From an uncultured Lachnospiraceae bacterium (lineage in GTDB: Bacteria; Bacillota; Clostridia; TANB77; CAG-508), in contig CAZYST010000002.1 of assembly GCA_964650305.1 (NCBI GenBank), positions 26,887 through 90,886 of the forward strand: a stretch of DNA of 64,000 nucleotides, written 5' to 3'. The notes under the pieces are model-generated. The model made no database searches. It was not told the origin of the DNA and saw only the letters and a list, made by a program, of their open reading frames with translations. Both the position numbers and the translations under genes were made by a program. Shown in pieces: positions 7,201 through 23,791 of this stretch; position 1 is the stretch's first letter, and every line of letters starts with the position of its first letter.

Positions 7201-9446
7201 ACATTATTGTAATTTGCTGTACTATTTACTGCTACAAGTCCTGTTGGTGCTGAATAATTTACTAATACCTCTTTGTATTCTTCTTCAATATTTGTTGTTT
7301 CTGAATTTGAAGTATATAGTTTTATGATTTCTTCTTTTGCTGGTGCATAAATGTCTATATCTATATTTGCATATATTTCTATATTTGTACCATTTGTTAA
7401 AACACCACTATTCAAAGCTTCTTGTCTTCCATCTATTGTTATTCTTAATTTATATATACCATTTTCATTTATTATTTCTGTATTTGTTAAATTTAAACCT
7501 TCACCATAAACTATTGTTGCATCTAGAATTTCTATATTTGTAATATAATTTGGCATTACAATTTCAAAAACTGAATTTCCAAATATATCTGATGTATCTT
7601 TATGGTTGTTAAGTTCTATTCTTAATTCAACATTTTCATTTCTTGTTATTGTTGATAAATTATCTCTATCTATAACTAAATTTACATCTGTTTTTGTATC
7701 ATTTAGTTTTGTTTCTGAAATAGCTTCTCCTATTTCTACTGCATCTACTACATAATCATATTTTGCACTTAATTTTAATTTTGAACTTATAGCTGATAAA
7801 TTTTTATATTCTTCTTTGCTTATTCCTGCATCTTTAGAAACTTTAGTATAATTTATGCTTAAGTTTCCTTCATTTACCGGTCTTGATGTTTTTAATACTA
7901 TTTTTTCATATCTATTTTCAAAATTTACAATTGCTTTTCCATCTTCTGTTATTGGATAATCTTTATTTATTGATGTTATTATATTTCCTTCTGTGTCATA
8001 AATATCTATAGTACCATTTTCTCCTAAGATATTATTTAAGTTTTCTTTGCTCATAGAAATTTCTTTATAGTATAGATCTGATGTTTGAATTACATTTCCA
8101 TCTTTTGATATATAATTTTCTTCTAAATCTTCTAAGATAATTTCTTGAACAATTTCTTTGTATGAAACATTTATTATGTTTTTAAATTTATATTCTATTT
8201 CATAATCATTTTCTGTATTGTAATTTAAGTATGTATAAGCTTTTGAAACTTCATTTGTTTCATTTTCTATATTATAAGATACTATGTCACCAGTTTGCCC
8301 TGATAATTCATATTCATATGTTTGGCTATCTTTTACAACATATATATAGTCATCATTTTCCACACCACTAAATGTTGTTAATTCTGCTGATATATTTGAG
8401 GTTGTATTCATAACATCTTGTATCTCGATATTTTCATAAGTGTATGTAATTAAAAATTCATCCACACCAGACTTACTATAATATCTTTCTTCTTCTACTA
8501 TTTCCTTATCTATATCTTTTAAATATTCATCTTCAAATTCATCTACTTTTACAAGTTCTTTTTCATTTTGAAGTTTAATATTTATTGTATTTGTTTCTTC
8601 ATTATATTCCCAATTTGAAGAATCAAATTTTACTTCTTCAGCAAATTTTCCATTAGTTCCTTGTGTAGATGATGCAACTAATGTTATGTTTGTTGGTAAA
8701 ACATCATTTATTTTCGGAACTTCTACACTTACTTTTGTTTCTTTAGCAGGTAATGTATTGTTTTCTGATGTTCCATCAACTTTTACTACTGTTTGTAAAA
8801 TTACTCCTTTTTTATCATTTCCAAATTGAATATATTTTGAGAGTGAACTTTCTAATTTAACTTCTCTTTCATCTTTCCAAGATACATTTAATGTTATTTC
8901 TTTTGAAACAGCGATTTCTTCACCATCATTATCTATATATGTACCTGTGAAAATAATTTTACTGTCTTGAGAAAGTTTATTTTCATTAATGTATTCTTCA
9001 TTTTTATATTCAATTGGTAATTGAATATTAAGTTCAGAATTACAATTTACTTGTCTAAATTCTAAAATATTATCTTCAAATTTTTGAATCATTTCAGATA
9101 ATTCTCCATCCTTCTTTAGACTATAATTTAACCCTGCACCTTCTTCAGATTCCTTAATTTCAACTTTTGCATCTTTTAAATATCCTGATTTTAAGACATT
9201 TAAATTTAGATTGATTAATAAATCCTTGTTATTTACATCACTTACAACCGAATAAGATTTATCTTCTCCAGTTCCAAAATATGCTTCAAATTCGACATTT
9301 TCATGTCCAGTATCTGCACTATTACCAAAGATTGTTTCAATCATTGATACGGCCAAACACTCTGTAACGAAAGCAAAATTTGCAAATGTTAATGTAAATA
9401 TTAGAATTATTGCCAACAATTTTTCTAGAATTTTGTTTTTTAGCAT
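4230..9446 (-). CDS. Giant surface protein, A-type paralogue (A', 1738 aa): signal peptide, ~1000 aa of unassigned beta-rich sequence, three DUF11-like repeats, one SdrD-B-like (Cna-B type) domain, C-terminal TM helix plus basic tail
   Basis: Uninterrupted 1738-codon ORF with GGAGG 9 nt upstream of ATG 9446. Hydrophobic N-terminus LAIILIFTLTFANFAFV. DUF11-like strings (KLTDEIPEGLI, VVTKQIPEELI). SdrD-B-like GTAWLDDNKDGKRDEYEPRLNDIKVSLVD...DSKGTYTFSGVEEGDYLV. C-terminus VFIHISVIITSILLGSIVIFIAYNKLIIKKRKGGA. Confidence 0.85.
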   Translation of the reverse strand: MLKNKILEKLLAIILIFTLTFANFAFVTECLAVSMIETIFGNSADTGHENVEFEAYFGTGEDKSYSVVSDVNNKDLLINLNLNVLKSGYLKDAKVEIKESEEGAGLNYSLKKDGELSEMIQKFEDNILEFRQVNCNSELNIQLPIEYKNEEYINENKLSQDSKIIFTGTYIDNDGEEIAVSKEITLNVSWKDEREVKLESSLSKYIQFGNDKKGVILQTVVKVDGTSENNTLPAKETKVSVEVPKINDVLPTNITLVASSTQGTNGKFAEEVKFDSSNWEYNEETNTINIKLQNEKELVKVDEFEDEYLKDIDKEIVEEERYYSKSGVDEFLITYTYENIEIQDVMNTTSNISAELTTFSGVENDDYIYVVKDSQTYEYELSGQTGDIVSYNIENETNEVSKAYTYLNYNTENDYEIEYKFKNIINVSYKEIVQEIILEDLEENYISKDGNVIQTSDLYYKEISMSKENLNNILGENGTIDIYDTEGNIITSINKDYPITEDGKAIVNFENRYEKIVLKTSRPVNEGNLSINYTKVSKDAGISKEEYKNLSAISSKLKLSAKYDYVVDAVEIGEAISETKLNDTKTDVNLVIDRDNLSTITRNENVELRIELNNHKDTSDIFGNSVFEIVMPNYITNIEILDATIVYGEGLNLTNTEIINENGIYKLRITIDGRQEALNSGVLTNGTNIEIYANIDIDIYAPAKEEIIKLYTSNSETTNIEEEYKEVLVNYSAPTGLVAVNSTANYNNVGSVLTSVRQGKKEDTLEIYTDAKQATMEIIVMNNNKNTVSEVSILGRIPFKGVKDIETGTDLGTTVDTKMVQGIVADARNRGEFKVYYSENEEATNDLSSSDNGWVENPESLENMKSYLIVPVDSDYQMIETEILRFTYVYEIPANLEHNENIYGTFLAYYKNNSEIAITDETSTPDIVGLTTGEGPEVNIETSTDVEKLSEFEELKITSKVKNTGTSLVENIEINIPIPKYTKFATVEQGTDLQYTVNNENVVFYIDSLETEKEVEVSINVLVNDYPSIEEYYRNTEGFIELDDGTYVIRTYENQEDMHDENAKYTDEVIKDPAVNLEVYSTVKAKDLQKELKSEVKSVEITGAELEIKETTETLDVIHQPKQELKYNIIIRNLTEKTKTNVVVTKQIPEELIFSNAYTLEYEEDGITSHEINNATYDETTRTVTWKIDELESKVPKQVVVKVKVGNITDGNTYKELFTTSKVTADGCKTYESNTVQTNIGKPSLDITQTSTTTNTYVKEGESIFYTFTIKNTGSASAKTVKLTDEIPEGLIIRKISYVLNGVQSEKRVSANYEAEISGTISPNNELVVNIEALAVRLDGVQERTVTNIGKVSGDGIEETETNSITHIIEADTSRGQTVVEKSNTSLGTNNNYSSNNSNVVKTYKLTGTAWLDDNKDGKRDEYEPRLNDIKVSLVDVNTGYIVKNVTTDSKGTYTFSGVEEGDYLVMFEYDTVKYTVTTYQKSDVEANVNSDAIITQVEQNGRKRNAAVTDTISVKNGSVSNIDIGLVLADTFDLKLDKTITKVTVQNKAGTTNQTFDKTQLAKMDIAGKHLSTSVVYIEYNIAVSNIGDIAGYAKKIVDYIPEGMTFKSELNPDWYTGTDGMLYTTALENTELQKGETKEIKLVLTKQMTEENTGIVNNVAEIYEDYNIYGISDKNSTPGNKVQNENDMSSADTMLTVKTGEVFIHISVIITSILLGSIVIFIAYNKLIIKKRKGGA

Positions 9447-9510
9447 AATTCAAATCCTCCTAACAAACTTTGTTTTTGACATAGTATGACATTACTATCA
9501 TATAATATAT

Positions 9511-9538
9511 ATTTTACTACTTTTTGCATAGTAGTCAA
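9511..9538 (-). promoter_or_regulatory. Candidate sigma-A type promoter for the A'-B2 gene pair
   Basis: On the minus strand, TTGACT (9533-9538), a 16-nt spacer and TAAAAT (9511-9516), about 65 nt upstream of ATG 9446. The background is AT-rich, so specificity is limited. Confidence 0.3.
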
Positions 9539-10020
9539 TACCCTTAAACTATTGATATTTCTATATTTTCCCAACTTTTTCTTTAAGGCTTTACGGAATC
9601 AAATAATCTTAATTTTAAGTTTTAAAATATAAAATTTTAATTACAATTTTTATTGGTAAATAAGCACTTTGTCAAAAATATATTAATACATATTATATAT
9701 CATTATGTAAACCTTTTCAACATAATTATATCATTTTTTTGACTTTTTTTCAATATTTTAACCGCTTATTTTTCGCTTTTTTAAAGGTTTTTTTGACTTT
9801 TTTTGTCGAAATGTACATTTTTGTTTTTTTATTTCTTTTTTTCACTCAATTTTCATCAAATATATTTTTTTAATTCCTTATATCAAGAATATAATATATT
9901 CTTAGGGCAAGTAGACTTTCAAGCATTTTGTTTATTTGTGGATAAAATAATAAAAAGCCCAAATTTTGTAAGTAAACTTAATATAAAATAATTGTGCACA
10001 ACTTTTAAAATCTTATATAC

Positions 10021-10045
10021 CAAAAGAAGAGCTATTTCTAGCTCT
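10021..10045 (-). terminator. Rho-independent terminator after the 2731-aa gene. It separates the two gene pairs into two transcription units.
   Basis: 7-bp stem AGAGCTA/TAGCTCT with a 4-nt loop, followed on the minus strand by TCTTTTG, 12 nt downstream of the stop at 10057. Confidence 0.45.
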
Positions 10046-10056
10046 CCTTTTATTTA

Positions 10057-13000
10057 TTATTTTATAGGTCTTTTCTTAATCTTAGTTATAATAAATTTTG
10101 TTGTGAATACTATTATCACTAATACTACTGCAATTATTCCTATTACCATTAATCCACTTGATGTTTTTTCCACAACATCTTTTATTACTCTGTCAGTCTT
10201 TGTTAAACCTGTAGGTGGTGTAAATGTTATTCTTTCTGCTGCACTTGTGTCTGTCTCTTCTGTTGAAGTTTTCCACTCACCGTTCTCTATCTTAGCATTA
10301 CCTATTGTTGTAATAAAGTTTGTTCTTCTACCACTTGTAACTGTGAATTGAATAACTTCTGCTACGTTTTCATATGTCATATCTTTTGATTCTGTTTCTT
10401 GTGCTACAAGTTTAGATAATGTTAATAATATTTGACCTTCATATGCTTCTGGATTCTCTTTAATACCTGAAACTGTTTTCTTACCTGCTGTACCTTCTGT
10501 TACATTATATGTAAGTGGTGTTAAGAATCTTGAAATTGATTTGTTTTTAATTTCTAATGCTTGTTCTCCATATTCATCATCTTTTGTTCTATCAGATACT
10601 GAAACTGCTAAGTTTGTTCTTAATATATCTGTACCTTTTACGCTATCATATGATACTCCATTTCTATCTAATAGTCCAACTCTTGTATTTGTATCTTCTG
10701 ATATGTCTGTAAATACATTATTTCTTTTTAATTTTCCTAGATATCCATCATCATATAGTTCTTTTGCTGTTGTAGTTCCCCAATATCCATTTGTATCACT
10801 ATTTTCTGTTGATTTAAATACTAAGTCATTATCTACATAGTCTAATATCTTATCAAACTTAATTTGTGCAATTTCATCATTATCTGATACTGTTGAATTG
10901 TAATAGTAATCACCTAAATATCTACCATAATATCCATTACCTCTTCCTGCATCAACATCTGTTGGATAATATGCTTTCTTCAAGCCAACTCTATAGATAT
11001 CTTTATTTTCGTCAACCCTATACATTTCATTTACTAAGATGTTACTTGCTGTTCCTGCTGCTGTGTATTCTGTATCATATAAACTATATGATCCTGATGT
11101 TGCATTTGCATTTGTTATTCTATTTGTACCTACAATCTTCTTACTGCTTTCGTTTACCATATATAATTTATCTGATACTAATGCACTAGATATAAATCCA
11201 AATCTCTTATTGTAATCTTTTTCAGTGTATTCTTCATCTGTTAGCATTTCTTTTAAAGTACCACTCTCTACATTTGTGTATGCTGCAGGATTATTATCTT
11301 TAAATCTTAATTCATCTAAATTAACACCTATTCTGTCTATCTCACTTACGTTTTCTGCTGTAAATCTATATTGAATTGTTACTGTAGAACCTTGTAAAAT
11401 TTCCTCATCTATATTTATAAATACAAATCCTTGTCCAATAAGTTTTTCATCTATTATGTTTCTATCTACGAAGTCTGTATATTCATTGCTTAAGAATTGT
11501 GTATTTTCTAATCCTATAGATCTAGTTCTATCTATACTATGAACTCTACTTATAATCTCACCTGCTGCGTTTCTTTCTATTTCCGTATTTACATAAATTC
11601 TTAGTAATTCTGTTCCATCAGATGTTACTAAACTAATATTGTCAATTTCTTTTACTAAATTTACTTGAGATTCTGGTCTATATTCAATACCAAAGTTTAC
11701 ATTGTTTATTGCGAAGTTTCTTTGACTTATGTGTTCATTCAACATGTTTGTTAATTTCTCATACATAAATGTTGCACTTGACATTGGTTTTACTGAAAGA
11801 TAATTGTTCATTTGAGTACTTGTCATCTTTTCAGGTTTTACTATAAATCTTACTGTTTCTGCATTCATTGCTGTATTTCTTAATAATGTTTCTATTAAAC
11901 CATCTGCTTCTGATTTTTCTTCTGCTGTCATATCATCATAATCATAGTTACTTCTTAATATTTCTGCTTTTTCATTTATCATTTTCTCAGAGTAAGCTAT
12001 AGTATTTAATCTATCAATTTCATCATCTCTAGCATCATTGTTTGTTTCTTCTTCTAGCTTTTGAATTATAGTATCATTGTCATCTGTATCTAAAGCTGAT
12101 GTATATTTTGTTGATTTGTAATCTTGACCGTTGAATATTGCCATATCTGTTATTATCTCATTTTCTCCTTCAACATAGTCACCATATCCAAATCTTACAA
12201 TATAGTATCCAGGTTTAAATCCATATAATACATATTCACCATCATCATTTGTTCTTGTTGTAAATTGTTTTAATGTAAAGTCTTCTGATGTTCCTGTTAT
12301 TTGTTTTAGATATGTATCTGTATTAATAACTTCTTCATAATATCTATCAGGTTCTGTTCCATTACCTTCTACATATACAATTTCTACTAAATCTACTCTT
12401 GCATTTCTAACCATAATATCATTTTCTTCTGATTGAGCTGTACCTTTTAGTTTGTAGTTTTTATCAATATTATCATTAGATTTAGCAAAAGCATTCTTTT
12501 TATCTTCTGCTTGTAAGTAACCATTACCACTATATTGTTCATTTGTTTCGCCAGCACTTCCTGGTTCAGATCTAGAATCATCCCAAACAAGTCCTCTTAT
12601 TGTTCTTATAAATTCTTTTGTGTTTGGATCCGGATCTGGATTTTCAGGAGTTGTTGGTGTTGGAACTGGATTTCTAGGAACTGTCATTGTTACACCTATT
12701 TTATATGTATCATCTTCATAAAATTCTACATTATCTATTGATTCATTTGCTTGTTGACTTGCTCCTGTATTTGGCTCTGCATTTCCAAGTCCTAAGTTAT
12801 CTGGATTTGAATTTCTATCTACTAAACCTGCTGGTCTTACATCAAATCCTAAAGGTGTTGTTTTTACTGTTGCTGTTTGACCTGTTGTGTCATAGTTCTT
12901 GTACCATGTAGAGTATGCACTTATTTCACCAATTCCTTCCGTTCCCCTACCATATTTGTCTTTTAATCTATCTTTAACTTCTTCTGTTATCTTTAAGTTT

Positions 13001-16000
13001 CTAGAATCTGTACTGTCTAAAGGAGTTAAAATATTTCTTGCTTCTTCTTTTCCTTCTTTATCAACTATATATTTAATAAAGATTTCTACACTTTCGCCTT
13101 CTTCTAATTGTACATTGTTAAATCCTCTAATATATAGTTTATTGTATCCATCAGCATCATATATTGAATCTCTGCTTGTTAATTCTCTGTTGTAATTGCT
13201 TGTATTAGATAATTTTAATCCAGTTGGTTCTGTTTCGCCTTCTTTATAATACCAAGCTTTAGCAATTTCAAGTTTCTTATCTACTAGTTTTACAGCATTT
13301 ACATCTTCTGCATCTTCTGCATTTTCAGCAACTTTAATTGTTACAACTTCATTTTCACCTAGTCTATTAATTTGTTCTTCTGTCATTGATGGATAATCTG
13401 CTGTTTCATTATCTTTGTCTGTGTATCCACTTCCTGATTCTAGTACATTTTTGTATGCATTTTCTACTTCTTGAGTATATTCTATAAAGTTTTCATCATA
13501 GTAGTCTGCAACTTCATCGATTGTTACTAAAACCTCTCTATCTGGATCTTTCATGTTTAATTCATCTTGTATAATTTCTTCATTTGTTATTGTTATTTTG
13601 AATGTTACTTCTATATTTAGCTCACTATTTTGTGTCTTGTAATCTCTTACTACTTTATGTTCATAGTCTTCATATCTATAGTAGTAATCTGATTCATATA
13701 ACTCTAATTCATAATTTTTATTGTCTATGTACTTACCATTTGTTTCATTAAATTCTTCGCCTGTTGCTCCTTGTGCTTCTTCATCTGTTAAGTACTTACC
13801 ATCTTTAATTAATATTTCATTATTCTTTACTCCGTTTTGATTATAATCATATGTTATTTGCTCACCATTTACTGTTGTTGTTATAGAATATAAATCTTTT
13901 GCAAGAGAAACATTTACATCTTCACGTTTTACTAAACCTAAGTTCATGTATTTTAAGTATTCTGTTTCTGGTAATTTGTAATCATTTCCTTGTTTGAATA
14001 AGAATAATGTTTTTGTATTTTCTAGACTCTTATTTACTCCTCTATCTTTATAGCTATTTATTTCACCATCTACTGGAATTACATCTTTCTTGATAAATGT
14101 TCTAGCTGTCATAACTCTTTCAATGTGATTTTCTGAATTTGGAGCATCAATTGCATCTAGTAATGATGTATGTCCTGTTTTTGAATATGTAAGTTCAGAT
14201 GTATCTTTGCCTGTTCTTTCATCTATTGTTTTATTATCTTCATTTTCATCTGCTTTGTATGCTTTGTTGTATCCTATTGTTTCGAAGTTTTCATCAAATT
14301 CATCTCTTACATCTGTAAATTCAAATGCATTTGAATCTTTTATGTATTTTTCAGCATCAGAATTTGTTGGAAGCCATTTTTCATCTATATTGTTTTGACC
14401 ATAGTTTGGATTTACTTCTTCTGTTCTTCCACCATAGTTTTCTGTTGCTTTATATGTTACACCATCATATTCAAATTCAATATAGTATTCATAATATTTG
14501 CTAGAATCTGAATATCTACCACCTGATTGATAGTAATCTGTTACTTTGTTTCCATATTCTTTTCCGTCAGCTTTATCTACTCTTTCAAATGTATAGAATC
14601 CATTTTCTCCTAATTTATTTGCCTTTGTCTTTGTTGTACCTATTTTTTCTTCATTGCCATTATGTACTCTATATAGATTTACTGTTATGTCATTAAATCT
14701 ATTCTCATCATTTTCATCTTCCATATATCCGTCTTTATCATCATCTAAGAATACTTTACCAGCCATAACTAAATCTTTTAATCTTACATATTCTTGTGTT
14801 ATTTCTTCATCATTGATATTTCTATCAATTTCTGGATTATTTAATGTTGGTCTTTCATACACAATTCTATCTTTAGCAGCTTCGTCTTTCTTTTTCTCTC
14901 CATCTAATTCTTTATGGTTTATATTAGTTAATTCTGTAAAGAAAGATGTGTTTTCTAAGTTTAGTAAGAACATGTTATTTTCTTCTATTTCTACTTTTAC
15001 AAAGTAAATTAACATATCTCCTGGATCTAGTATAGTTTTATTATCTATTTCAAATTCATATGTATTATTTCCTAAATCATGTTGTGTGAATTTTACATTA
15101 TCATTTTTTACTTCTCCACCAGATCCAAATATCATAGCTTTTACATCAATTAGTTTTAATCCTGTGTCTAAAATTTCTCTAACTTTTGTTGGCCTTACTT
15201 GTGTTCCTTGTTTTCCACCATATGCTACTTGATCTGCCGAAATTTCTTTATCTTCATTTGTTAATCTAATTGAGTAAACAATTTGCTCTGTTTTTTCAAC
15301 TTCAAATGGTTGTGCAAATCTTTCAGATTCGTCTATTCCAAATCTTACTGTATCTTCATAGTCGTCTCTATTTCCGCCTGGATTATTGAAGAATTTATCT
15401 CCTACTGTTGATGTTTCATTTTCTGTAAATCCAATCTTATTATTTTCGTTCATCATTGATGCATCATATGAACTTACATATTTATCTATTTGTAAATCGT
15501 AATCATTTAAAATATATGAATCTTTTGATTCCCATTTAGTTTGCTCATTTCCATTCTTATCTACAACTACTATTGGTCCATTATCATCTATAGTTCTTAC
15601 GTAATCTTTCCACTCAGAGTCTGTAGTTCTATTTCTTGTAATTAACTTAGCAGTATTTGTATACGTTCCTTCTAAGCTTTCTACTACCATCGTTACTGTA
15701 AATGATGCCTTACCTTTAGGATTTATTTCAATTATAACTTTTTCTAAGTCATCCATTGATGTTATTTCTTTTTTATTTCCATTTGAAGTAAATTGTCCAT
15801 CAATACTTGAAGAAAAATTAGCTTTAACAAAAGTAGCATCTTTTGGTAATTCATCTGTTGCTCTTACTTTTACACCAAAAGCTGAATTATTTTCTATTTC
15901 AATCTTAAATGTTACATAATCGCCAAATTCTGAATATACAGGTTTTGCATTCTTTTCATCTTCTGATAATTTACTTCTAAAATCTCCTTTTTTCATCGTA

Positions 16001-18252
16001 GAATCATAACCTGTTATTGTTCTACCATTTATATGATTTACATCATATATATATTTATTTATTTCTACATTTGCTATTAATGGAATATCCTTTAATAAAC
16101 ATTCTAATCTATTATCTTTAACTTTGGCTTCTTTTACAGCCAATAATTTCTGAGCATGTTTCATTCCCAAGTCTTCACATGTCCAGTCAAATTTTACACA
16201 TGTAAAATGTCCATGTGCACATTTTGTTCCTTCTTTTCCATTATTATCTCCTTGTTTATATGTAGAATTACCATAGCATTTATGTTTTCCATTACAAGAA
16301 AAATTTCCTGTTCCACTTTTACAATTTCTTTCTCCATACACTCCAGCATGATTTCCATTATAATGTCCATGTGAACAATAATTTTTTCTACATGGATCAC
16401 ACTTACAAGAATCTTCGTGTTCATGTCTAGTATAGTGCCATCCTGTTTTTACTCCATTTGAATCATAATCATATTCCTTTCCTGCATTAAGTTCTCCATC
16501 ACAATTACAATATCTTCTGTCAAATCCATTATGACATGAATAATGATCTTGAGAATATCCATGTTGACAATAGCTAGGACTTCCATATTGTGAACAAAAA
16601 TATGAATGATATTTATTTGTTGTAATTTCTTTACCATCTACTACTTGTGCTGATTTAGAATATCTAGAAAGAGTTCTTGGTTGATATCCACAAAAATCAC
16701 AATAATATTTACAATTTGTATATTCTCCCATTGCAAAATCAGACATTGCTTCTCCATCTTCATCATCATCATCTTTTAATGTAATATTGGTTGTTCTTGG
16801 TATTAATTTTCCATCCCATTCTAATAGTCTAAATTCGCCATTCAAATCCCATCCAGAACCTTCTGCTGTTAAATATTTATATGTAAATTTTAGTTCTTTT
16901 ACTTTAGTTGCATTTCCACATTCTGCTCTATTTACTTTTACATAGAATTTTGAACCTGGAGCTGGATATTGATAATTTCCTGTCATATCTGGAGATACCC
17001 ATGTTTCTTTATTATCATAACGACTCCCTGTAATATGCATTGACGGTACATCTGAATATCCTTCTACATATTCAAAATTATCTTTTTTTAGTTCTATGGT
17101 TGTTCCATTATCTAATACAAGTTCTGCTTTTACAATTCCACAAATTAAGCCATTATAAAAATCTTTTTCACTTGTAGACATATTCTTTACAAATTCTGCA
17201 TTTATTTCAGACTCCTTAGAAAATTGTTGCACATCTGAAGACCAAGCATATGTATATTCAGCTACTTTTATTGGACCTATCTTGTATTTTGAATCTTCTT
17301 TTTCATCTATTATTGTTCCTGTATTTTTTATATTTGTTTCATCTGTTGTAGTAGACAAATCAGGAGTCACTATATTTTCAAGTTTAAATTCTTCTACAGC
17401 TTTTGCTGCTCTATATAATGCTTGACCATTAGTTAGCGCTGCACTATCATTTATCGTATTTCCACCCAAAGTTCCTTTTTCATTTAACCAATTTGCAATT
17501 TGTGCTCTATCATTTTTATAATATGCTCTTTGTGAATAAGCCATAATATATGCTGTGGAAGTACTAAATTTTCTAGAAGAAAATTCATAATTCAACCTTG
17601 TTTTTGTAAATTGTTTATATACAACTTCTCTTACAATATCTCTTTCATGTACAGTCTTTGTCTCTGATTCAACGCTTCCACCTGTAACTGTACCACTTTG
17701 ATCGACATCAACTTCCAAAACTAATCCTTTACTACAAGAGTAAGGTCTATAATCTTCTATTGCATCATGATATACATCATCAGTATTTTTGTCGTTTGTA
17801 TCTGTATTTGTATCTTCTAGTGCATGAAACATATTTATCTTTCTACTTTTATATGCTGGCAAAGGTTTACCTGGCTCTGAACAAAATATAGATGTATTAT
17901 ATTTTAATGAGTCAAGCCATCCATATTTGCTTCCATATGTTTGTGCATTAATCTCACTTTTTACTGCACCATAATTTTTTATACCTGTATTTCCAGCAGC
18001 TGATTCATAAGATGTTCCTGTACTGCCATCACTTGCATATATAGCATATCCTCTATGTTCTCTAATTACAGAATTTTCAGCTATTCTATTTCCTGATGTT
18101 ATTTTCTCTACTGTATTTAAATTTATATTATCTTCTTTTGCTTCTAAAGCTTCTACATTTGGAGCAGAGATATATGCAATAATCGAATACATCACTGCTA
18201 CTGTTAACATTAATATTGATATTTTAACTCTTTTATTTTTCATATTCTCCAC
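10057..18252 (-). CDS. Giant surface protein, B-type paralogue (B1, up to 2731 aa): signal peptide, thioester-domain-like N-region, Cys/His-rich segment, DUF11-like Ig domains, two SdrD-B-like domains, Pro-rich linker, C-terminal TM plus basic tail
   Basis: Uninterrupted ORF. The track start 18252 is GTG; ATG at 18243 preceded by GGGGGTGGAG is the more likely start. Motifs: IFCSEPGKPLP and RAQIANW; VFLDDDKDGYMEDENDENRFNDITVNLYRV; PVPTPTTPENPDPDPN; GLVWDDSRSEPG...DDGEYVLYGFKPGYYIVRF. C-terminus GLMVIGIIAVVLVIIVFTTKFIITKIKKRPIK. Confidence 0.85.
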   Translation of the reverse strand: MENMKNKRVKISILMLTVAVMYSIIAYISAPNVEALEAKEDNINLNTVEKITSGNRIAENSVIREHRGYAIYASDGSTGTSYESAAGNTGIKNYGAVKSEINAQTYGSKYGWLDSLKYNTSIFCSEPGKPLPAYKSRKINMFHALEDTNTDTNDKNTDDVYHDAIEDYRPYSCSKGLVLEVDVDQSGTVTGGSVESETKTVHERDIVREVVYKQFTKTRLNYEFSSRKFSTSTAYIMAYSQRAYYKNDRAQIANWLNEKGTLGGNTINDSAALTNGQALYRAAKAVEEFKLENIVTPDLSTTTDETNIKNTGTIIDEKEDSKYKIGPIKVAEYTYAWSSDVQQFSKESEINAEFVKNMSTSEKDFYNGLICGIVKAELVLDNGTTIELKKDNFEYVEGYSDVPSMHITGSRYDNKETWVSPDMTGNYQYPAPGSKFYVKVNRAECGNATKVKELKFTYKYLTAEGSGWDLNGEFRLLEWDGKLIPRTTNITLKDDDDEDGEAMSDFAMGEYTNCKYYCDFCGYQPRTLSRYSKSAQVVDGKEITTNKYHSYFCSQYGSPSYCQHGYSQDHYSCHNGFDRRYCNCDGELNAGKEYDYDSNGVKTGWHYTRHEHEDSCKCDPCRKNYCSHGHYNGNHAGVYGERNCKSGTGNFSCNGKHKCYGNSTYKQGDNNGKEGTKCAHGHFTCVKFDWTCEDLGMKHAQKLLAVKEAKVKDNRLECLLKDIPLIANVEINKYIYDVNHINGRTITGYDSTMKKGDFRSKLSEDEKNAKPVYSEFGDYVTFKIEIENNSAFGVKVRATDELPKDATFVKANFSSSIDGQFTSNGNKKEITSMDDLEKVIIEINPKGKASFTVTMVVESLEGTYTNTAKLITRNRTTDSEWKDYVRTIDDNGPIVVVDKNGNEQTKWESKDSYILNDYDLQIDKYVSSYDASMMNENNKIGFTENETSTVGDKFFNNPGGNRDDYEDTVRFGIDESERFAQPFEVEKTEQIVYSIRLTNEDKEISADQVAYGGKQGTQVRPTKVREILDTGLKLIDVKAMIFGSGGEVKNDNVKFTQHDLGNNTYEFEIDNKTILDPGDMLIYFVKVEIEENNMFLLNLENTSFFTELTNINHKELDGEKKKDEAAKDRIVYERPTLNNPEIDRNINDEEITQEYVRLKDLVMAGKVFLDDDKDGYMEDENDENRFNDITVNLYRVHNGNEEKIGTTKTKANKLGENGFYTFERVDKADGKEYGNKVTDYYQSGGRYSDSSKYYEYYIEFEYDGVTYKATENYGGRTEEVNPNYGQNNIDEKWLPTNSDAEKYIKDSNAFEFTDVRDEFDENFETIGYNKAYKADENEDNKTIDERTGKDTSELTYSKTGHTSLLDAIDAPNSENHIERVMTARTFIKKDVIPVDGEINSYKDRGVNKSLENTKTLFLFKQGNDYKLPETEYLKYMNLGLVKREDVNVSLAKDLYSITTTVNGEQITYDYNQNGVKNNEILIKDGKYLTDEEAQGATGEEFNETNGKYIDNKNYELELYESDYYYRYEDYEHKVVRDYKTQNSELNIEVTFKITITNEEIIQDELNMKDPDREVLVTIDEVADYYDENFIEYTQEVENAYKNVLESGSGYTDKDNETADYPSMTEEQINRLGENEVVTIKVAENAEDAEDVNAVKLVDKKLEIAKAWYYKEGETEPTGLKLSNTSNYNRELTSRDSIYDADGYNKLYIRGFNNVQLEEGESVEIFIKYIVDKEGKEEARNILTPLDSTDSRNLKITEEVKDRLKDKYGRGTEGIGEISAYSTWYKNYDTTGQTATVKTTPLGFDVRPAGLVDRNSNPDNLGLGNAEPNTGASQQANESIDNVEFYEDDTYKIGVTMTVPRNPVPTPTTPENPDPDPNTKEFIRTIRGLVWDDSRSEPGSAGETNEQYSGNGYLQAEDKKNAFAKSNDNIDKNYKLKGTAQSEENDIMVRNARVDLVEIVYVEGNGTEPDRYYEEVINTDTYLKQITGTSEDFTLKQFTTRTNDDGEYVLYGFKPGYYIVRFGYGDYVEGENEIITDMAIFNGQDYKSTKYTSALDTDDNDTIIQKLEEETNNDARDDEIDRLNTIAYSEKMINEKAEILRSNYDYDDMTAEEKSEADGLIETLLRNTAMNAETVRFIVKPEKMTSTQMNNYLSVKPMSSATFMYEKLTNMLNEHISQRNFAINNVNFGIEYRPESQVNLVKEIDNISLVTSDGTELLRIYVNTEIERNAAGEIISRVHSIDRTRSIGLENTQFLSNEYTDFVDRNIIDEKLIGQGFVFINIDEEILQGSTVTIQYRFTAENVSEIDRIGVNLDELRFKDNNPAAYTNVESGTLKEMLTDEEYTEKDYNKRFGFISSALVSDKLYMVNESSKKIVGTNRITNANATSGSYSLYDTEYTAAGTASNILVNEMYRVDENKDIYRVGLKKAYYPTDVDAGRGNGYYGRYLGDYYYNSTVSDNDEIAQIKFDKILDYVDNDLVFKSTENSDTNGYWGTTTAKELYDDGYLGKLKRNNVFTDISEDTNTRVGLLDRNGVSYDSVKGTDILRTNLAVSVSDRTKDDEYGEQALEIKNKSISRFLTPLTYNVTEGTAGKKTVSGIKENPEAYEGQILLTLSKLVAQETESKDMTYENVAEVIQFTVTSGRRTNFITTIGNAKIENGEWKTSTEETDTSAAERITFTPPTGLTKTDRVIKDVVEKTSSGLMVIGIIAVVLVIIVFTTKFIITKIKKRPIK

Positions 18253-18256
18253 CCCC

Positions 18257-21200
18257 TTATTTATATACTTTCTTCAGTTTAGATTTTTCTTTCGACTTGT
18301 TTTTGTACGTTATGTTTATTTTAAATTTGCTTAAATCTACTTTTCCAGTCTTATCTAGCATTATAGCTATTAGTATTAGTAGCACCGCTATTGCTAATAG
18401 TATCTGTGGTGCTCTACCTGTACTTACAGTAACAATTAATTCTTGTGTTGCTGTATTTCCTTCTTTATTTTCCTCTAATCCTTCTTTTGTTACCAATGAT
18501 GCAATTTCTGCTTTATTGCTAAATGTTCCTGTATTATCTGTTGTCATTTGTTTTTCTAATATTATTGTTAATTCTTTCTTCTCACCAGGTTTTATTTCTG
18601 TATTTTTTAATGTTTCATTATATAAATTTCCATCTGTACCTTTATACCAACCATTATTTTCTTTTTCATTAAATATCATATCTTTTGGCATATAGTCTAA
18701 TACTTTTTCTGCAGTTCCAGAAACATTTCCTGTATTTTCTACTACTATTTTGTATTCTAATTTTATTTTTGTATTTTTTAAATTTTTAGATTTTATTTCA
18801 AGTTTTGCTATTTCTTTATTTTCAAATTCTTCTGTTTTGTCTTTGCAATTTGTTGTTACTATTGCTTTTGTTATATATTTGCTTACTTTTAAATCAAATT
18901 TATCTTTACTCTTTAATCCAAAATCTATATTTGTAATATCTGAATCTGTTATAGTTAATGTATTTGTCATAGCAACACCATCAACATTTTCAGAAGCATC
19001 TGAATTTTTATCTTCATCTACACCAGATTTTTTATACACCGTACCTACATATTTATTTGAATCATATATAAATGTTAATGTATATTTACCTACTGATAAT
19101 CCTTCAAATCTATATGTCCCTGTGCTATCTGTTGTGCAAGCTTTTATCATCTTCCCATCTTTATTTAATTGCACTTTTACTCCTGAAAGTTTTTCTTCAT
19201 TTTCGTCTTTTTTGCCATCTTGATTTTTATCAAACCAAGTTTGACCTGTTATTTTATATGTTTTTTCTTCTACTTTTGTTTCCTCTTTTTTGTTTGTTGT
19301 ACTATTGGCATTATTGTTATTAGTGTTGTTATTATTATTTGTATTTTCAGAACTATTTAAATAACTATCATCAACAACAGGATTTTTTATAGTATTATTT
19401 TTTTCTTCTTCTTTTTCTTCTTCGTTTGTTAATGGTCTATTTGGATTTTTAGCTATAGTAATATCTAAATTATTTACTTCTATTTCACCTGTTGTTTTTT
19501 CTGTTAGTTGTCCATAAACTGTTATCTTTTTAAAACTTTCACTTTCTGATAAAACTTTTGGTATTACTTTTATTATTAAAGATGATTTTCTATCAATATC
19601 TAATTTTGATAATTTACCTATTACAACATTATCGTTTATTTCTGTCCTTATTTGTGAATTTCCTTCATAAGATACTCTTTTTATTTCTAATTCTTCTGGT
19701 ATTTTTATTTTTGTTTCTATTTCGTTTGCCATTCCTTTTCCATCATTGGAAATATTTAGCACAATACTAAATTCTTCACCCTCTAAAGCATTTTCATTTC
19801 CTAAACTTGATGATTGTGCTACTATTAGTTTAGGTCCAAAAACTTCAAATGCTATTTTAGTTCCTAGTTCATCTTTATTGTCTTTTGATTTTACTACTAC
19901 TTGATTTGTTAATTCTTCACTTCCTGTGTTTATCATTCTTGTAATTTTACATTTAATATACATTCTTGTTGTAGCATCTACTTCTAAATCCCCTAAATTT
20001 ATTGTTAATAAATTAGTTTCTTCATCATAAGTATATTCATGTTCTTCATCATTTACTTCTAAACCTGTAACTATAATTTCTTTTGGTAATTTATCTTCTA
20101 TTAATATATCTTTTTGAATTGTTTCAGAAATATTTTTAATTGATACAGTATAATCAAATTCATCTCCTACTTCTAAATCCACTTTTGAATATTTTTCTAC
20201 AGCTGTACGTATATCAAAATTACATTTCTTTAATTTATTTTTAACTGTATTTGTTGTAATTTCTTTTGCCAAATTTCCAATTGTGACTTTAGCTGTATTT
20301 TCTACATATAATTCTGGTATTTCTGTTATATATTGTTTATTTCCGTTTTCGTCTATTTCAAATACACCTGTTTCATCCCAAGATTTATTATATAATATTT
20401 TATATTCATCCAATGTTTTTGGTAATTCTTGTGTTCTTACAATAAATGATTTTTCTACTACTTCACCAGCTTTTATTTCATCTATATTCCATTTTGCTTC
20501 TGCATCATTTGTCTCTTGATATCCATCATCTGTTAAGTCAGCATATATACCTTTTCCACAAATTCTAGTTAATTTTGGTGTTTCATTTATTATAGTTACA
20601 TCTTTTGCATCTATACTTCCTATATTGCTAACTATAATTGTATATTTTAAGAATTTTGCTTCATATACATCAGCTCCGTCTCCAATGTCAACATTCATTA
20701 TAGCTTCTACTTTTGGACCAGCTTCTGTTTCTAGCACAATTTTATCAGCAGATGAGCTTTCATATACTACTGCTACATCTGTTATATTGTTATAATATGC
20801 TCCAAAACTTCCTACTAATTTTGATTCATATGGTAGATTTTCAGGTATTTCAAAATCATAAGAATATTGTAATGAAGCACCATTTTCTACTAATCCATTT
20901 ACCACTATCAAGAAAGATTTTACATGTGTTAAATCTTCTACTTGTGTTGTCCAACCATTTGATTCATCATTTAAATTTTTATTTGCTTTTTCATTCGCTG
21001 AATAGTAAATTGTTGCTCCAGCTGAATTTGATGGATCTGTTTGTATTAGATCTTTTAATGTTATATTTATATTTGTTCCTAATTCTTCACCACTTATTAC
21101 ATCTGTATTTCCTTTAAATGGTACTCTTCCTAGCATTACTATATCTGTACATTTATTTCCTGTATTATTTAATACTACTAAATCCATTGTTGCTGTTATT

Positions 21201-23791
21201 GCACCATTATTTATATTTATTCTTCTTGTCATTTCACCTTGTTTTACAGAATTTACTTCTGATCCTTGTCCGTCATAATTTCTTATTCCATTTATTGCAA
21301 GTAAACCAACTGGTGCTTGATATTCTACTACTGCAACATCAAATCCATTTGTTTGTTTTAATATATTTGCTGGTACAGATTTATTTACTCTCCATAATGT
21401 TTGTGTTTGATAATTACTTACCCCTTCATTATAATAATATAATTTAATTTGATCTTCTTTTCTTGGTGTATATTCATCTAATTTCATTCTTGTATTTAAA
21501 ATAATATTTGTTCCATTTGTTATTTGATTATCTACAAATCTTGTTTGCGTTCCTTCAAGTTCTAATCTTGTTTTTAAATTTTCTCCATCCATATATGTTT
21601 CAAAGTGTTTTATTGTTAATCCATTTTCATATAGCATATTTACACTTTCTAAAACTACTTCTTTAATATATTTAGGATATACAATCTCAAATGTTGGATT
21701 TATGTATAAATCACTTTCAAAATTGTTGTTATTTAATTCTATTTTTAATTCAACATTTTCATTTTCTTGCATTGTTGTTAATTGTTCTTTGTTTATATTT
21801 AATGTTGCTTTTGTATAACTTTCTTTAAATTCTTTTCTCGTTCCTATTGTTGGTAATGTTAATGTTTCTTCTATATTTGCATATTTAACTTCAGCTGTTA
21901 TTCTACTTTCTATTGATTTAAATGTTGCAAATAATGCTTTATCTAATTCTGGTCTTGCGATTGCTTTTGTTATTTCAATATCTATTTTTCCATTTGCAGA
22001 AACATTTTTTACATTAATTATTACACCAGATTCATTATTCATATTTATTGTGCAATCTTCTTCTGATGATACTAAATCTTTTGTTAATGTATATAGTAAT
22101 GTTCCATCTAATGAATATATTTCAATAGCTCCACCATTTTCTAATGTTGATTTTATATCATTATAATTAAATTTTATTGTTTTGTATCTTATTCCACTTG
22201 CTTGGAATTCCATTTCGTTTTTATCTATAAATACTTCTTTTGAAGAATCTATTTTTAATTCTTCTAACATATCACTTGTAAGTATATTTAATCTTATATT
22301 ACTTGTATATTCTGTTTCATAAGGAATTTCATCTGAATTATAGTTTGCATATGTTTTTGCTTTATTTATTTTGTCTTCTGAAGTTCCTATGCTATATGTT
22401 ATTAATTCTCCTCTATTTGTTTCAATTTCATTTTCTTCTGATATCTGTTTTGTTATAGTATTTAAAGCATTTCCACTATATTCTTCTACATTTAATTCTA
22501 ATTCATTTTTTAATGTTACTTTTTCTTCTTCTGTATATTCATCAAATCTATATATAATAACGTATTCATCTTCACCCAAAGAGTTTATGGCTTTTCCATC
22601 TTTTTCATTTTTTACATTTATTGTAATTATTCCTTCATCTTTATTATATGTCCAATTTTCTTTATCAAATTCTACATATCCACTATCTTGACCTTTTGTT
22701 ACCATTAATTTATTTGCTTGAACATCAACACTTATTGGAGCTTTTCCATTAAATGTTGGAACTTTTATTTCTATGTTCATATTTTTAACTGGTAAATATT
22801 TTTCTTCAACAGTATTTCTTGATACTATTATTTTATTTTCTGCAATAATACCTGTTGTTTCACCTATTTTAAATGGAGAAAATTTTGTATATTCACTTGT
22901 TATTCCTATATCTTGTGTATAGGTCCAAGCTATATTTAATTTTTGTTCTTTAGCAACTTCTCTTTCTTTTAGATTTACATCTATATATTTTCCTTGTAAT
23001 CTAAAACTTATTTCTTGTGCTAAGCTTGAAATATCTATTTCAGATGAATTTGTATATTCAATCTCTGCTTCTATTTCAGTTTCTTCTAGTATATTTACAA
23101 GCTCAATTTCACTTTCTGAAATTATTCTGATATCTGAAACTAAAACTTCTTCTACTTCTTCCTGCTCTTGTTTTATATATTCTTCTTCATCAATAATTTC
23201 TTCTTGTTCTTGAACTACATTTTCTGAAATTTCATTTTTTTCTTCTACTTTTGGTAATTTAGTTTGTGTTTCAGGCATAACGCTAAATACTTCATTTACA
23301 ACATTTTCTGATGTAACTAAAGTATTTTCTACTGAGTTTTCTGAAATTTCATTTACATCTCCTACTAACTCTAGATTTTTATTATCTTCTACATCTAGTA
23401 TTTCTTCTGGTTCTTTTGTCTCTCCAGTGCTTATCGATGTAAATTTAAATCTTAATACACTACCATCTGTAGGTACTGCCGTTATTTTGGCATTTTTTAA
23501 ATACCCTTCTACTTGTGGGGTAATTTTAAACTTTACCTTTACTTTTTGGTTTACCTCACTTGTAATTTGGTCTGTTTCTTTTCCTTCTGTGTCCTCAAAA
23601 TAAGATGCAAACTTTACTTCATCTTTTTTGAAAAATCCATAAGAAATTTCTTTGAATTCTTCTGAAGATGCTATTGCTTGAATAGTAAAGCCAAAATTTG
23701 AAAACATTATCATGAAAATTATCATTGATATCAGGGTTTTTCTAATTTTTCTCTCCATCTTTTTTCTCTCCTTCTCTTTGGTTTTAGACAT
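18257..23791 (-). CDS. Giant surface protein, A-type paralogue (A, up to 1844 aa): signal peptide, acidic low-complexity stretch, unassigned beta-rich region, DUF11-like repeats, Asn-rich linker, SdrD-B-like domain, C-terminal TM plus long Lys-rich tail
   Basis: Uninterrupted ORF. Likely true start is ATG 23758 (MERKIRKTLISMIIFMIMF...) with AAGGAGAG 7 nt upstream. Colinear with the 1738-aa protein. SdrD-B-like GQTWFDKNQDGKKDENEEKLSGVKVQLNKDGK...DSTGTYRFEGLSVGKYTL. C-terminus APQILLAIAVLLILIAIML plus a K-rich tail. Confidence 0.85.
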   Translation of the reverse strand: MSKTKEKERKKMERKIRKTLISMIIFMIMFSNFGFTIQAIASSEEFKEISYGFFKKDEVKFASYFEDTEGKETDQITSEVNQKVKVKFKITPQVEGYLKNAKITAVPTDGSVLRFKFTSISTGETKEPEEILDVEDNKNLELVGDVNEISENSVENTLVTSENVVNEVFSVMPETQTKLPKVEEKNEISENVVQEQEEIIDEEEYIKQEQEEVEEVLVSDIRIISESEIELVNILEETEIEAEIEYTNSSEIDISSLAQEISFRLQGKYIDVNLKEREVAKEQKLNIAWTYTQDIGITSEYTKFSPFKIGETTGIIAENKIIVSRNTVEEKYLPVKNMNIEIKVPTFNGKAPISVDVQANKLMVTKGQDSGYVEFDKENWTYNKDEGIITINVKNEKDGKAINSLGEDEYVIIYRFDEYTEEEKVTLKNELELNVEEYSGNALNTITKQISEENEIETNRGELITYSIGTSEDKINKAKTYANYNSDEIPYETEYTSNIRLNILTSDMLEELKIDSSKEVFIDKNEMEFQASGIRYKTIKFNYNDIKSTLENGGAIEIYSLDGTLLYTLTKDLVSSEEDCTINMNNESGVIINVKNVSANGKIDIEITKAIARPELDKALFATFKSIESRITAEVKYANIEETLTLPTIGTRKEFKESYTKATLNINKEQLTTMQENENVELKIELNNNNFESDLYINPTFEIVYPKYIKEVVLESVNMLYENGLTIKHFETYMDGENLKTRLELEGTQTRFVDNQITNGTNIILNTRMKLDEYTPRKEDQIKLYYYNEGVSNYQTQTLWRVNKSVPANILKQTNGFDVAVVEYQAPVGLLAINGIRNYDGQGSEVNSVKQGEMTRRININNGAITATMDLVVLNNTGNKCTDIVMLGRVPFKGNTDVISGEELGTNINITLKDLIQTDPSNSAGATIYYSANEKANKNLNDESNGWTTQVEDLTHVKSFLIVVNGLVENGASLQYSYDFEIPENLPYESKLVGSFGAYYNNITDVAVVYESSSADKIVLETEAGPKVEAIMNVDIGDGADVYEAKFLKYTIIVSNIGSIDAKDVTIINETPKLTRICGKGIYADLTDDGYQETNDAEAKWNIDEIKAGEVVEKSFIVRTQELPKTLDEYKILYNKSWDETGVFEIDENGNKQYITEIPELYVENTAKVTIGNLAKEITTNTVKNKLKKCNFDIRTAVEKYSKVDLEVGDEFDYTVSIKNISETIQKDILIEDKLPKEIIVTGLEVNDEEHEYTYDEETNLLTINLGDLEVDATTRMYIKCKITRMINTGSEELTNQVVVKSKDNKDELGTKIAFEVFGPKLIVAQSSSLGNENALEGEEFSIVLNISNDGKGMANEIETKIKIPEELEIKRVSYEGNSQIRTEINDNVVIGKLSKLDIDRKSSLIIKVIPKVLSESESFKKITVYGQLTEKTTGEIEVNNLDITIAKNPNRPLTNEEEKEEEKNNTIKNPVVDDSYLNSSENTNNNNNTNNNNANSTTNKKEETKVEEKTYKITGQTWFDKNQDGKKDENEEKLSGVKVQLNKDGKMIKACTTDSTGTYRFEGLSVGKYTLTFIYDSNKYVGTVYKKSGVDEDKNSDASENVDGVAMTNTLTITDSDITNIDFGLKSKDKFDLKVSKYITKAIVTTNCKDKTEEFENKEIAKLEIKSKNLKNTKIKLEYKIVVENTGNVSGTAEKVLDYMPKDMIFNEKENNGWYKGTDGNLYNETLKNTEIKPGEKKELTIILEKQMTTDNTGTFSNKAEIASLVTKEGLEENKEGNTATQELIVTVSTGRAPQILLAIAVLLILIAIMLDKTGKVDLSKFKINITYKNKSKEKSKLKKVYK

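Follow-up and report, generated by a model that had tools for sequence, protein, structure and literature searches.

The question raised by this locus is what a dense cluster of Cys and His residues is doing in a giant surface protein that otherwise almost lacks Cys. The protein, B1, is encoded on a 64,000-nucleotide stretch of DNA from an uncultured Lachnospiraceae bacterium (contig CAZYST010000002.1 of assembly GCA_964650305.1, positions 26,887 to 90,886), to which we refer throughout as the window. The cluster forms the end of a long hairpin that belongs to the N-terminal head of B1, and some related proteins of gut Clostridia, among them the paralogue B2 in the same window, carry a small Cys/His element at the same site. 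With about equal readiness to see it upheld or overturned, we propose that the B1 segment represents a small hairpin knob, braced by Cys and His and expanded in tandem to three copies, in a probable thioester domain (TED) head, with Zn-type bracing and a role as a contact surface.

Composition of the B1 segment

A sequence-only reading of the window had singled out a 179-residue segment of B1 with 18 Cys and 13 His in a giant protein nearly free of Cys, and our recount agrees. The segment spans residues 514–692 (nucleotides 16713–16177, minus strand), and Cys and His together make up 17% of it; it also contains 21 Gly, 19 Tyr, 14 Asn, 6 Phe and 2 Trp. Its coordinates and counts stand as first given, with one correction at the boundary: the Asn that had been written as the first residue is residue 513, and the counted segment begins at Cys514. 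Only five Cys occur among the other 2552 residues of B1 (positions 124, 173, 371, 445 and 718), and the final 2013 residues contain none. The enrichment lies far beyond chance. At the Cys rate of the window proteome (0.79%), the probability of 18 or more Cys in 179 residues is ~1e-14, and at the rate of the remainder of B1 it is ~3e-25. The corresponding probability for His is ~1e-8, given a window-proteome His frequency of 0.89%.

Short motifs recur within the segment. CSHGHY is found at residue 626 and CAHGHF at residue 678. The broader pattern C-x-[HN]-G occurs four times, which is more than expected from composition-preserving shuffles of the segment (p=0.00025), and none of 20000 shuffles reached the two observed copies of C[SA]HG. 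HEHED, a single CKCDPC cluster and CxH motifs are also present. At the DNA level, the GC content and codon-position pattern are the same as in the remainder of the gene, and all but three of the Cys, His, Tyr and Asn codons end in A or T. We found no DNA tandem repeat within the segment and so rejected a recent repeat expansion at the nucleotide level. The only tandem repeat nearby is a (CAT)6 run on the plus strand (window 16755–16773), which codes for the acidic stretch DDDD(E)D just ahead of the first Cys and may be prone to slippage.

Several familiar classes of Cys-rich sequence were considered and set aside. As the sequence-only reading had stated, the segment has no CxxCH motif, which disposes of a multihaem cytochrome or other haem-binding module. 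A metallothionein would be expected to have clustered CxC/CxxC motifs and hardly any aromatic residues or His; the segment has the one CKCDPC cluster, but also 19 Tyr, 6 Phe, 2 Trp and 13 His, and there is no match to a metallothionein profile. A SCIFF/ranthipeptide-type precursor does not suit the context, the segment being a domain of a secreted protein of 2731 residues.

The segment occupies a hairpin tip shared with related proteins

The family to which B1 belongs was defined from its paralogue. The N-terminal 565 residues of B2 retrieved 17 homologues, rising to 21 after a profile search, all of them metagenomic and none with a Pfam domain. A genome scan with the family profile returned 29 loci, all from gut metagenome-assembled genomes (MAGs) labelled as uncultured Clostridia or Candidatus Scatovivens, with one Erysipelotrichaceae and one Lachnospiraceae. 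In a local search the B1 head matches the B2-family profile with an i-Evalue of 2.8e-8; IFCSEPGKPLP of B1 aligns with ilCcqkGtalp of the profile, and AQIANW with vQkAWW. The stalk, which forms the C-terminal ~2000 residues of B1, shares ~25% identity with the B-type stalks of the 29 gut-MAG loci.

Within this family the B1 segment lies between an outgoing strand (FxYMNAGG...TW) and a returning strand (YWxELT...Q; ...FDWTCEDLGMKHAQ in B1), and thus forms the tip of a hairpin. It had earlier been placed after the head domain. It instead lies within the head, just upstream of a conserved Gln, and its last Cys (residue 692) is nine residues ahead of the equivalent Gln701.

We compared hairpin tips across 41 family members from gut Clostridia MAGs. 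The tips of the relatives range from 0 to 61 residues in length. Ten members (B2, L003, L004, L010, P0007/L001, L008, L013 and L023–25) share a Cys/His clasp with the pattern [WY]C ... (C) ... D-x-x-G turn ... C[SD]G ... C-x-H-G-x-[YF]-x-x-H. The opening and closing Cys, the Gly and the final His are each present in 10/10 members and the His of CxH in 9/10, giving four conserved columns of candidate Cys/His ligands in the alignment (two Cys, the CxH His and the final His). The sequence-only reading had asked how far its C[SA]HG[HE][YF] unit extends; a C-x-H-G-x-[YF] motif closes the equivalent loop in all ten, with the Cys and His columns conserved. Two further members have other Cys patterns: P0009 has four Cys (three in the loop and one in the strand) and P0017 has five CxxC pairs.

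Cys numbers at the tip are variable. Clasp tips contain 2, 3, 4 or 5 Cys each, and the full list for Cys-bearing relatives is 2, 2, 3, 3, 4, 4, 4, 5, 5, 5 and 10, plus P0009 with the three loop Cys and one strand Cys given above. Whether the count is always even had been posed as a question, and it is not: values of 2, 3, 4, 5, 10 and 18 occur, and 5 of the 12 Cys-bearing tips have an odd number (3 or 5), with B1 even at 18. His follows Cys, making up 8.0% of residues in Cys-bearing tips vs 2.9% in Cys-free tips (Fisher p=2e-4). Outside the tip, these proteins of 1.7–2.7 thousand residues contain only 0.1–0.5 Cys per 100 residues. Across ~460 kb of related loci, almost all Cys-dense windows in long open reading frames (ORFs) fall at the hairpin tip of these proteins; the handful of exceptions comprises two unrelated ORFs and stretches of signal peptide or head motif.

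Approximately 25 of the 41 relatives have Cys-free or Cys-poor tips, often acidic (DEDGD, EDEEDLEEDEE). The two kinds of tip are visibly homologous, as L019 and L021 share YDDEGNFTGY with the Cys-bearing L024. The picture of a non-conserved insertion, which the sequence-only reading had named as an outcome that would count against it, therefore describes the family taken as a whole and does not describe the Cys/His subgroup, where the columns are conserved. In a rough neighbour-joining tree the crown clades lack the clasp, whereas several deep lineages and the outgroup B1 have it, a distribution that suggests an ancestral element lost repeatedly. Among the Cys-free tips, those of L011, L012, L015, L030, P0004 and P0006 are strongly acidic (DEDGD, EDEEDLEEDEEPE), so that cations may be bound at the tip also in the absence of Cys and His.

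The head resembles class II thioester domains

Class II TEDs provide the closest, though weak, structural parallel that we found for the head. These domains have the thioester Cys within a [YFL]CΦζ motif, TQXXΦW on helix alpha2 and a beta-sandwich inserted after alpha3 (PMC6194298). Their extended, twisted P–Q hairpin, in which strand Q bears the bond-forming Gln (ΦQζΦΦ), threads back through the N-lobe, and receptor access has been proposed to require movement of strands P and Q (PMC6194298).

The three motifs have candidate counterparts in the B family. The family's one invariant Cys column contains C73 of B2 and C124 of B1, in the context [FLIV]C[CS]x in the family and IFCSE in B1. Only two columns of the 41 sequences have a conserved Gln. 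The first is B2 Q169, in a TQxxΦW-like motif that reads VQNAWW in B2 and AQIANW in B1, the first residue being V or A and not T. The second is B2 Q442, which directly follows the long hairpin in an [AS]-Q-x-L-[AG] context and is Gln in 38/38 covering sequences. B1 Q701 (HAQKLLAV) was matched to this column (KAQLLALG in B2) by eye, because the post-loop region of B1 is unaligned and gapped there in hmmalign.

An AlphaFold2 model of B2 (predicted local distance difference test (pLDDT) 76, predicted template modelling score 0.72) places N-terminal strands before three helices, with QxxWW on the second, followed by a sandwich of at least seven strands and a long hairpin formed by strands E357–396 and E421–441. 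The Cys/His element is the tip of that hairpin (residues 399–417). The class II TED fold consists of a beta-barrel, three-helix bundle, seven-stranded sandwich and slipknot, and the order of elements in the model fits it. The best three Foldseek matches to the model are class II TEDs (6fwy, 6fwv), at a weak level (E 7e-3 to 4e-2, probability <=0.28, TM score <=0.2).

The B-type head thus resembles the class II TEDs BaTIE, SaTIE and EfmTIE86 (6fwv, 6fwy; PMC6194298) in its N-terminal position on a sortase-anchored stalk, in the invariant [YFL]C-type Cys and second-helix Q-x-x-Φ-W, in the sandwich after a three-helix bundle, and in an extended hairpin whose returning strand has a conserved Gln in a ΦQζΦΦ-like context. 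It differs in having no detectable sequence-profile relationship, in size (~460 residues in B2 and ~700 in B1, compared with ~275), and in its longer hairpin with a Cys/His knob on top, a feature without mention in PMC6194298. We regard the head as probably, rather than established to be, a divergent class II-like TED, in which the thioester itself is putative. A papain-like or NlpC/P60 peptidase was rejected because the family alignment has no invariant His.

The B1 knob as three proposed tandem units

The B1 segment has no homologue of its own detectable by sequence search. Pfam searches at E<=10 with the segment, head and stalk of B1 gave only noise, and searches of PDB sequences with the segment, the head and the family profile gave no match. 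Neither B1 residues 1–760 in a word-indexed search among 5.8 billion proteins, nor genome and metagenome scans with residues 330–760 and 1–513, nor tblastn against plasmids found a match, and B1 has no record in the assembly index. An exhaustive phmmer search of 1.84 billion representatives with residues 491–720 returned a sole match, P0001, which we rejected as an unrelated 32-fold tandem-repeat artefact. The sequence-only reading had been unable to assign the segment to a known domain family, and after the Pfam, PDB and phmmer searches no characterised Cys-rich family matches it.

Comparison with family knobs was more informative. The complete L023 knob aligns to B1 residues 581–633 (score 58, p ~0.01) and the L013 knob to residues 622–684 (score 59, p=0.003), both judged against shuffles of the B1 segment. 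When the segment is divided into three units (Table 1), each aligns with the family knobs better than its own shuffles do; the z and p values in the table come from Smith-Waterman comparison of each unit with eight family knobs against composition-matched shuffles of that unit. In the joint alignment every unit opens with an aromatic residue and Cys, turns at D-x-[DN]-G (VVDGKE, DSNGVK and DNNGKE) and closes with C-x-H-G (CQHGY, CSHGHY and CAHGHF), and unit 3 has a Cys at or beside the final-His position (CAHGHFTC). With these modest statistics, the alignments suggest that the segment comprises three tandem clasp units. The sequence-only reading had described B1 as an expanded version of an element shared with B2; this is consistent with our alignments, which extend the C-x-H-G-x-[YF] motif to ten family members and resolve the B1 copy into the three putative units.

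Bracing chemistry and alternative explanations

In the arrangement we propose, the knob would cap a long beta-hairpin of two strands within the N-terminal head, in a family of giant surface proteins that gut Clostridia anchor by sortase. Since the returning strand carries the conserved Gln, the knob would stand at the far end of the Gln-delivering hairpin. Each unit would open with [WY]C, turn at D-x-[DN]-G and close with C-x-H-G-x-[YF]-x-x-H, and the Cys and His of its two arms would be tied together by tetrahedral metal sites, most likely of Zn2+, and not mainly by disulfides. Metal bracing would yield a rigid, protease-resistant protrusion in a reducing gut habitat. From the place of the knob on top of the hairpin with the putative reactive Gln, we infer that the protrusion may provide the adhesin with a variable surface for contact or specificity.

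The sequence-only reading had suggested a metal-binding or a disulfide-knotted module, and the sequence evidence tilts towards metal. Zn-type bracing is our preferred chemistry for the putative sites, and the principal competitor is a knob in which cystines staple the hairpin arms, with the His residues incidental or in contact with ligand. The invariant first and last clasp Cys, on opposite arms, would suit a loop-closing cystine, and even counts are found in B1 (18) and elsewhere (2, 4 and 10). We nonetheless judge this disulfide arrangement unlikely and favour metal for several reasons: odd Cys counts occur in the tips noted above, His is co-enriched with Cys and stands in conserved columns beside it, the Cys of unit 3 takes or adjoins the final-His position, P0017 uses classical CxxC pairs, and the habitat of gut Clostridia is reducing while Firmicutes tend to exclude exported Cys. 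The last point follows the general exclusion of Cys from exported Firmicute proteins (PMC2823432); functional DsbA/VKOR has been described in some Clostridia (PMC12453122), and the 64-kb window itself contains no thiol-disulfide oxidoreductase genes.

The knobs of bovine ultralong antibody complementarity-determining region H3 (CDR H3) are disulfide-bonded, have even Cys counts and are not His-rich. The B-family hairpin resembles them (4k3d) as an architectural analogy only: in both, a beta-ribbon projects from a sandwich (immunoglobulin-like in the bovine case) and ends in a small, variable Cys-rich knob whose Cys number and spacing vary. Antigen-binding fragments of this kind (8ed1, 8cif, 4k3d and 6e9k) are among the weak Foldseek matches to the B2 model, which lends the disulfide arrangement some encouragement, but only at E 0.09–1.1. 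There is no homology, and the B family differs in allowing odd numbers of Cys and in having His that varies together with Cys.

Known zinc modules offer another comparison. As in zinc ribbons, zinc knuckles and the B-box, the B-family Cys and His ligands would lie on two hairpin arms with Gly following a ligand (CxCGG, CSGG, CxHG). Unlike those modules, B1 and the [WY]C...CxHG clasp are extracellular and match no zinc-finger profile; zinc-finger and zinc-ribbon profiles gave no match to the B1, L023 or L013 knobs, and the P0017 tip scored 24.1 bits on the B-box Zn model against a cut-off of 27. We know of no described finger type with the spacing C-x(3-6)-C-x-H-x5-H. The clasp could be read as a previously undescribed extracellular metal-clasped hairpin fold, with B1 a poly-metal knob of up to ~7 sites that serves as a stopper or as a metal- or redox-controlled gate for the thioester. 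We consider this improbable; a gating or stopper role is more speculative than that of a contact surface.

The tip might also tolerate any sequence, in which case the B1 segment would be functionless, hypervariable filler biased by an AT-rich genome (TGT, CAT, TAT and AAT codons) and without defined structure. The wide range of tip lengths, the many Cys-free or Cys-poor relatives, the spurious tandem-repeat match as the only yield of the phmmer search, the very low AlphaFold confidence of the segment and the A/T-ending codons all point this way. Against it, the Cys and His columns are kept across ten divergent relatives, C-x-H-G recurs beyond compositional expectation, the B1 units align with family knobs better than shuffles, and Cys is nearly excluded from the rest of these proteins, so that we rate filler a poor prospect. 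Poorer still, and in our view very unlikely, is a metal-handling or redox module whose 31 Cys and His ligands capture or buffer surface Zn, Ni, Fe or Cu, or switch adhesion according to metal or redox state. The ligand density and the HEHED, CKCDPC and CxH motifs would fit such a module, as would the strong acidity of neighbouring Cys-free tips, which hints at general cation binding at the site. The segment is, however, unlike metallothionein in its abundance of aromatic residues and shows no similarity to metallothioneins, Pht triads or metallochaperones; no metal transporter gene is adjacent, and most orthologous adhesins have only a small version of the element or none.

Several observations weigh against the metal-braced, three-unit knob in a TED head. 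Structure prediction gives no Cys/His site geometry. The model of B1 residues 301–760 is uninformative, with a mean pLDDT of 46.9 and most of the segment below 40; only a hairpin at residues 592–607 exceeds 60, and the input alignment was of the pre-loop part only, as MAFFT failed to place the post-loop strand of B1 against the family. The B2 knob is itself predicted below pLDDT 50. The Foldseek match to TEDs is weak, no Pfam or NCBIfam TED matches 17 members at E<=1 or B1 residues 1–513 at E<=10, and the A1 profile has 0 matches among PDB sequences. L003 has Tyr at the position of the CxH His, and the element is dispensable, being absent altogether in ~25/41 relatives. Per-unit p values of 0.008–0.02 are modest. 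A hidden Markov model (HMM) of the short closing motif scored no better than composition-matched shuffles, and the claim of motif recurrence consequently rests on the regular-expression and Smith-Waterman shuffle tests. The DsbA/VKOR systems of some Clostridia (PMC12453122) leave room for disulfides, and the Cys count of B1 is even.

Gene organisation and the adhesin family

The window has a GC content of 25.9% and contains four very large consecutive genes on the minus strand, C, B1, A and B2. Coordinates of these genes and of the features discussed above are given in Table 1.

Table 1. Genes and sequence features of the B1 locus, in window coordinates.
Feature	Coordinates	Strand	Remarks
Gene B1	10057..18252	minus	2731 aa, GTG start; signal peptide, TED-like knob-bearing head, ~2000-aa stalk, TPPTG sorting signal
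Signal peptide region, residues 1–35	18148..18252	minus	Basic and hydrophobic N-terminus; aligns with family N-termini
SIFCSEPG, candidate thioester Cys124	17869..17892	minus	[YFL]C-type motif; family's only invariant Cys column, 41/41 including B1
RAQIANW, TQxxΦW-like motif (Q251)	17488..17508	minus	Gln and final Trp 41/41; helix H167–172 in B2 model
Outgoing hairpin strand FTYKYLTAEG...EFRLLEW, residues 456–479	16816..16887	minus	Aligns with family FxYMNAGG...TW; high-pLDDT long strand in B2 model
Acidic linker KDDDDEDGE, residues 480–513	16714..16815	minus	Precedes first Cys; like acidic tips of Cys-free relatives
Putative knob unit 1, residues 514–570, CKYYCDFC ... VVDGKE ... YCQHGYSQDH	16543..16713	minus	Unit alignment; z=2.5, p=0.015
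Putative knob unit 2, residues 571–635, YSCHNG..YCNCDG ... YDSNGVKTGW ... CKCDPCRKNYCSHGHYNGNH	16348..16542	minus	L023 alignment; z=2.35, p=0.02
Putative knob unit 3, residues 636–692, ..NCKSGTGNFSCNGKHKC ... DNNGKEG ... KCAHGHFTCVKFDWTC	16177..16347	minus	L013 alignment; z=3.0, p=0.0075
HAQKLLAV, candidate thioester Gln701	16135..16158	minus	Returning strand; [AS]Q.L[AG] column; matches strand Q of class II TEDs
TPPTG sortase-type sorting motif	10207..10221	minus	[ST]PPTG or TEPTG conserved at B-type C-termini
Hydrophobic C-terminal helix and basic tail	10060..10152	minus	As at other B-type C-termini
Gene C	18257..23791	minus	A-type partner (DUF11, SdrD_B), immediately upstream of B1
Gene A	4230..9446	minus	A-type partner of B2; A–B pair conserved in related genomes
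Gene B2 (partial)	1..4228	minus	Runs off window; paralogue with single-unit knob
B2 knob WCRVSGVHRPHGSGENACDGKSCSHGEYRYH, residues 393–423	2960..3052	minus	3 Cys, 5 His (4 inside delimited loop and H423)

The A–B gene pair is kept in nearly all loci examined. Gene order in the window is MreC-MreD-PBP2-MinC-[C-B1]-[A-B2], and in L032 MinC is followed directly by a single A–B pair; C–B1 is therefore an additional and strongly diverged version of a conserved adhesin cassette of two genes. L003 begins with a B1-like C-terminus, TTRFITIKIKKRRIK and its stop, upstream of its A gene, and so a B1 orthologue exists in that MAG (JAAVXQ01) beyond the stretch that was fetched. L004, L007, L010, L026 and L030 likewise have upstream C-termini of the B1 kind. 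Spacing within each pair is tight, with the GTG of B1 4 nt past the stop of gene C (window 18252–18259) and the ATG of B2 1 nt past the stop of gene A, which suggests that each A/B pair is co-translated from one operon. Between B1 and A there is a terminator-like hairpin and a 610-nt AT-rich spacer (9447–10056). The window is chromosomal and lies near the origin (mnmG, mnmE, parB, yidC), and its genes for MreBCD, PBP2, MinC, SpoIIR and GerM indicate a rod-shaped, spore-forming organism.

B-type proteins end in [ST]PPTG or TEPTG followed by a hydrophobic helix and basic tail, and A-type proteins end in VKTGE. Two sorting signals are thus conserved, [ST]PPTG or TEPTG in B-type and [IV]KTGE in A-type proteins (window 10207–10221 and 4230–4460; C-termini of L003–L031), and may mean that the A and B proteins use separate sortases or pair with each other in a pilus-like way. 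Within its beta-sandwich, the B2 family has a conserved EF-hand-like loop, NEDANQDGxIxxxDE (window 3461–3496, B2 residues 245–256), with a weak match to EF-hand_5; it is a possible Ca2+ site and has no obvious equivalent in B1.

Some B2 homologues are interrupted, with homologous sequence resuming afterwards (L001:2602-2780, L002:5235-5300, L032:12130-12175 and L033:6372-6394). P0007 has TAG-TCG-TAA at the returning hairpin strand, P0017 has TGA at a conserved Leu position, P0004 has TGA after the head, and P0016 has a frameshift. These could be pseudogenes, cases of phase variation or assembly errors. An alternative genetic code was rejected, as TAG, TAA and TGA all occur and the window genes are intact under table 11.

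Implications for gut Clostridia adhesins

TED adhesins bind host molecules covalently, and neither the basis of their specificity nor the control of access to the buried thioester is settled. The thioester-type adhesin system of Gram-positive bacteria is known; what is new here is a Cys/His knob variant on a head family that profiles do not detect. Definition of this TED-like family matters for the annotation of surface proteins in the gut microbiome, where current profiles miss it. These giant adhesins of gut Clostridia place a variable Cys/His-rich knob exactly on the P–Q-type hairpin, in proteins that are otherwise nearly free of Cys. If metal-braced, the knob would represent a kind of extracellular Cys/His metal site that is uncommon for a Firmicute, and would also be a natural scaffold for stalk-and-knob display. 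Should it gate or lock the hairpin, metal or redox state would be tied to covalent adhesion, and a poly-metal stopper or gate, if it proved true, would be a new way to regulate or reinforce covalent bacterial adhesion.

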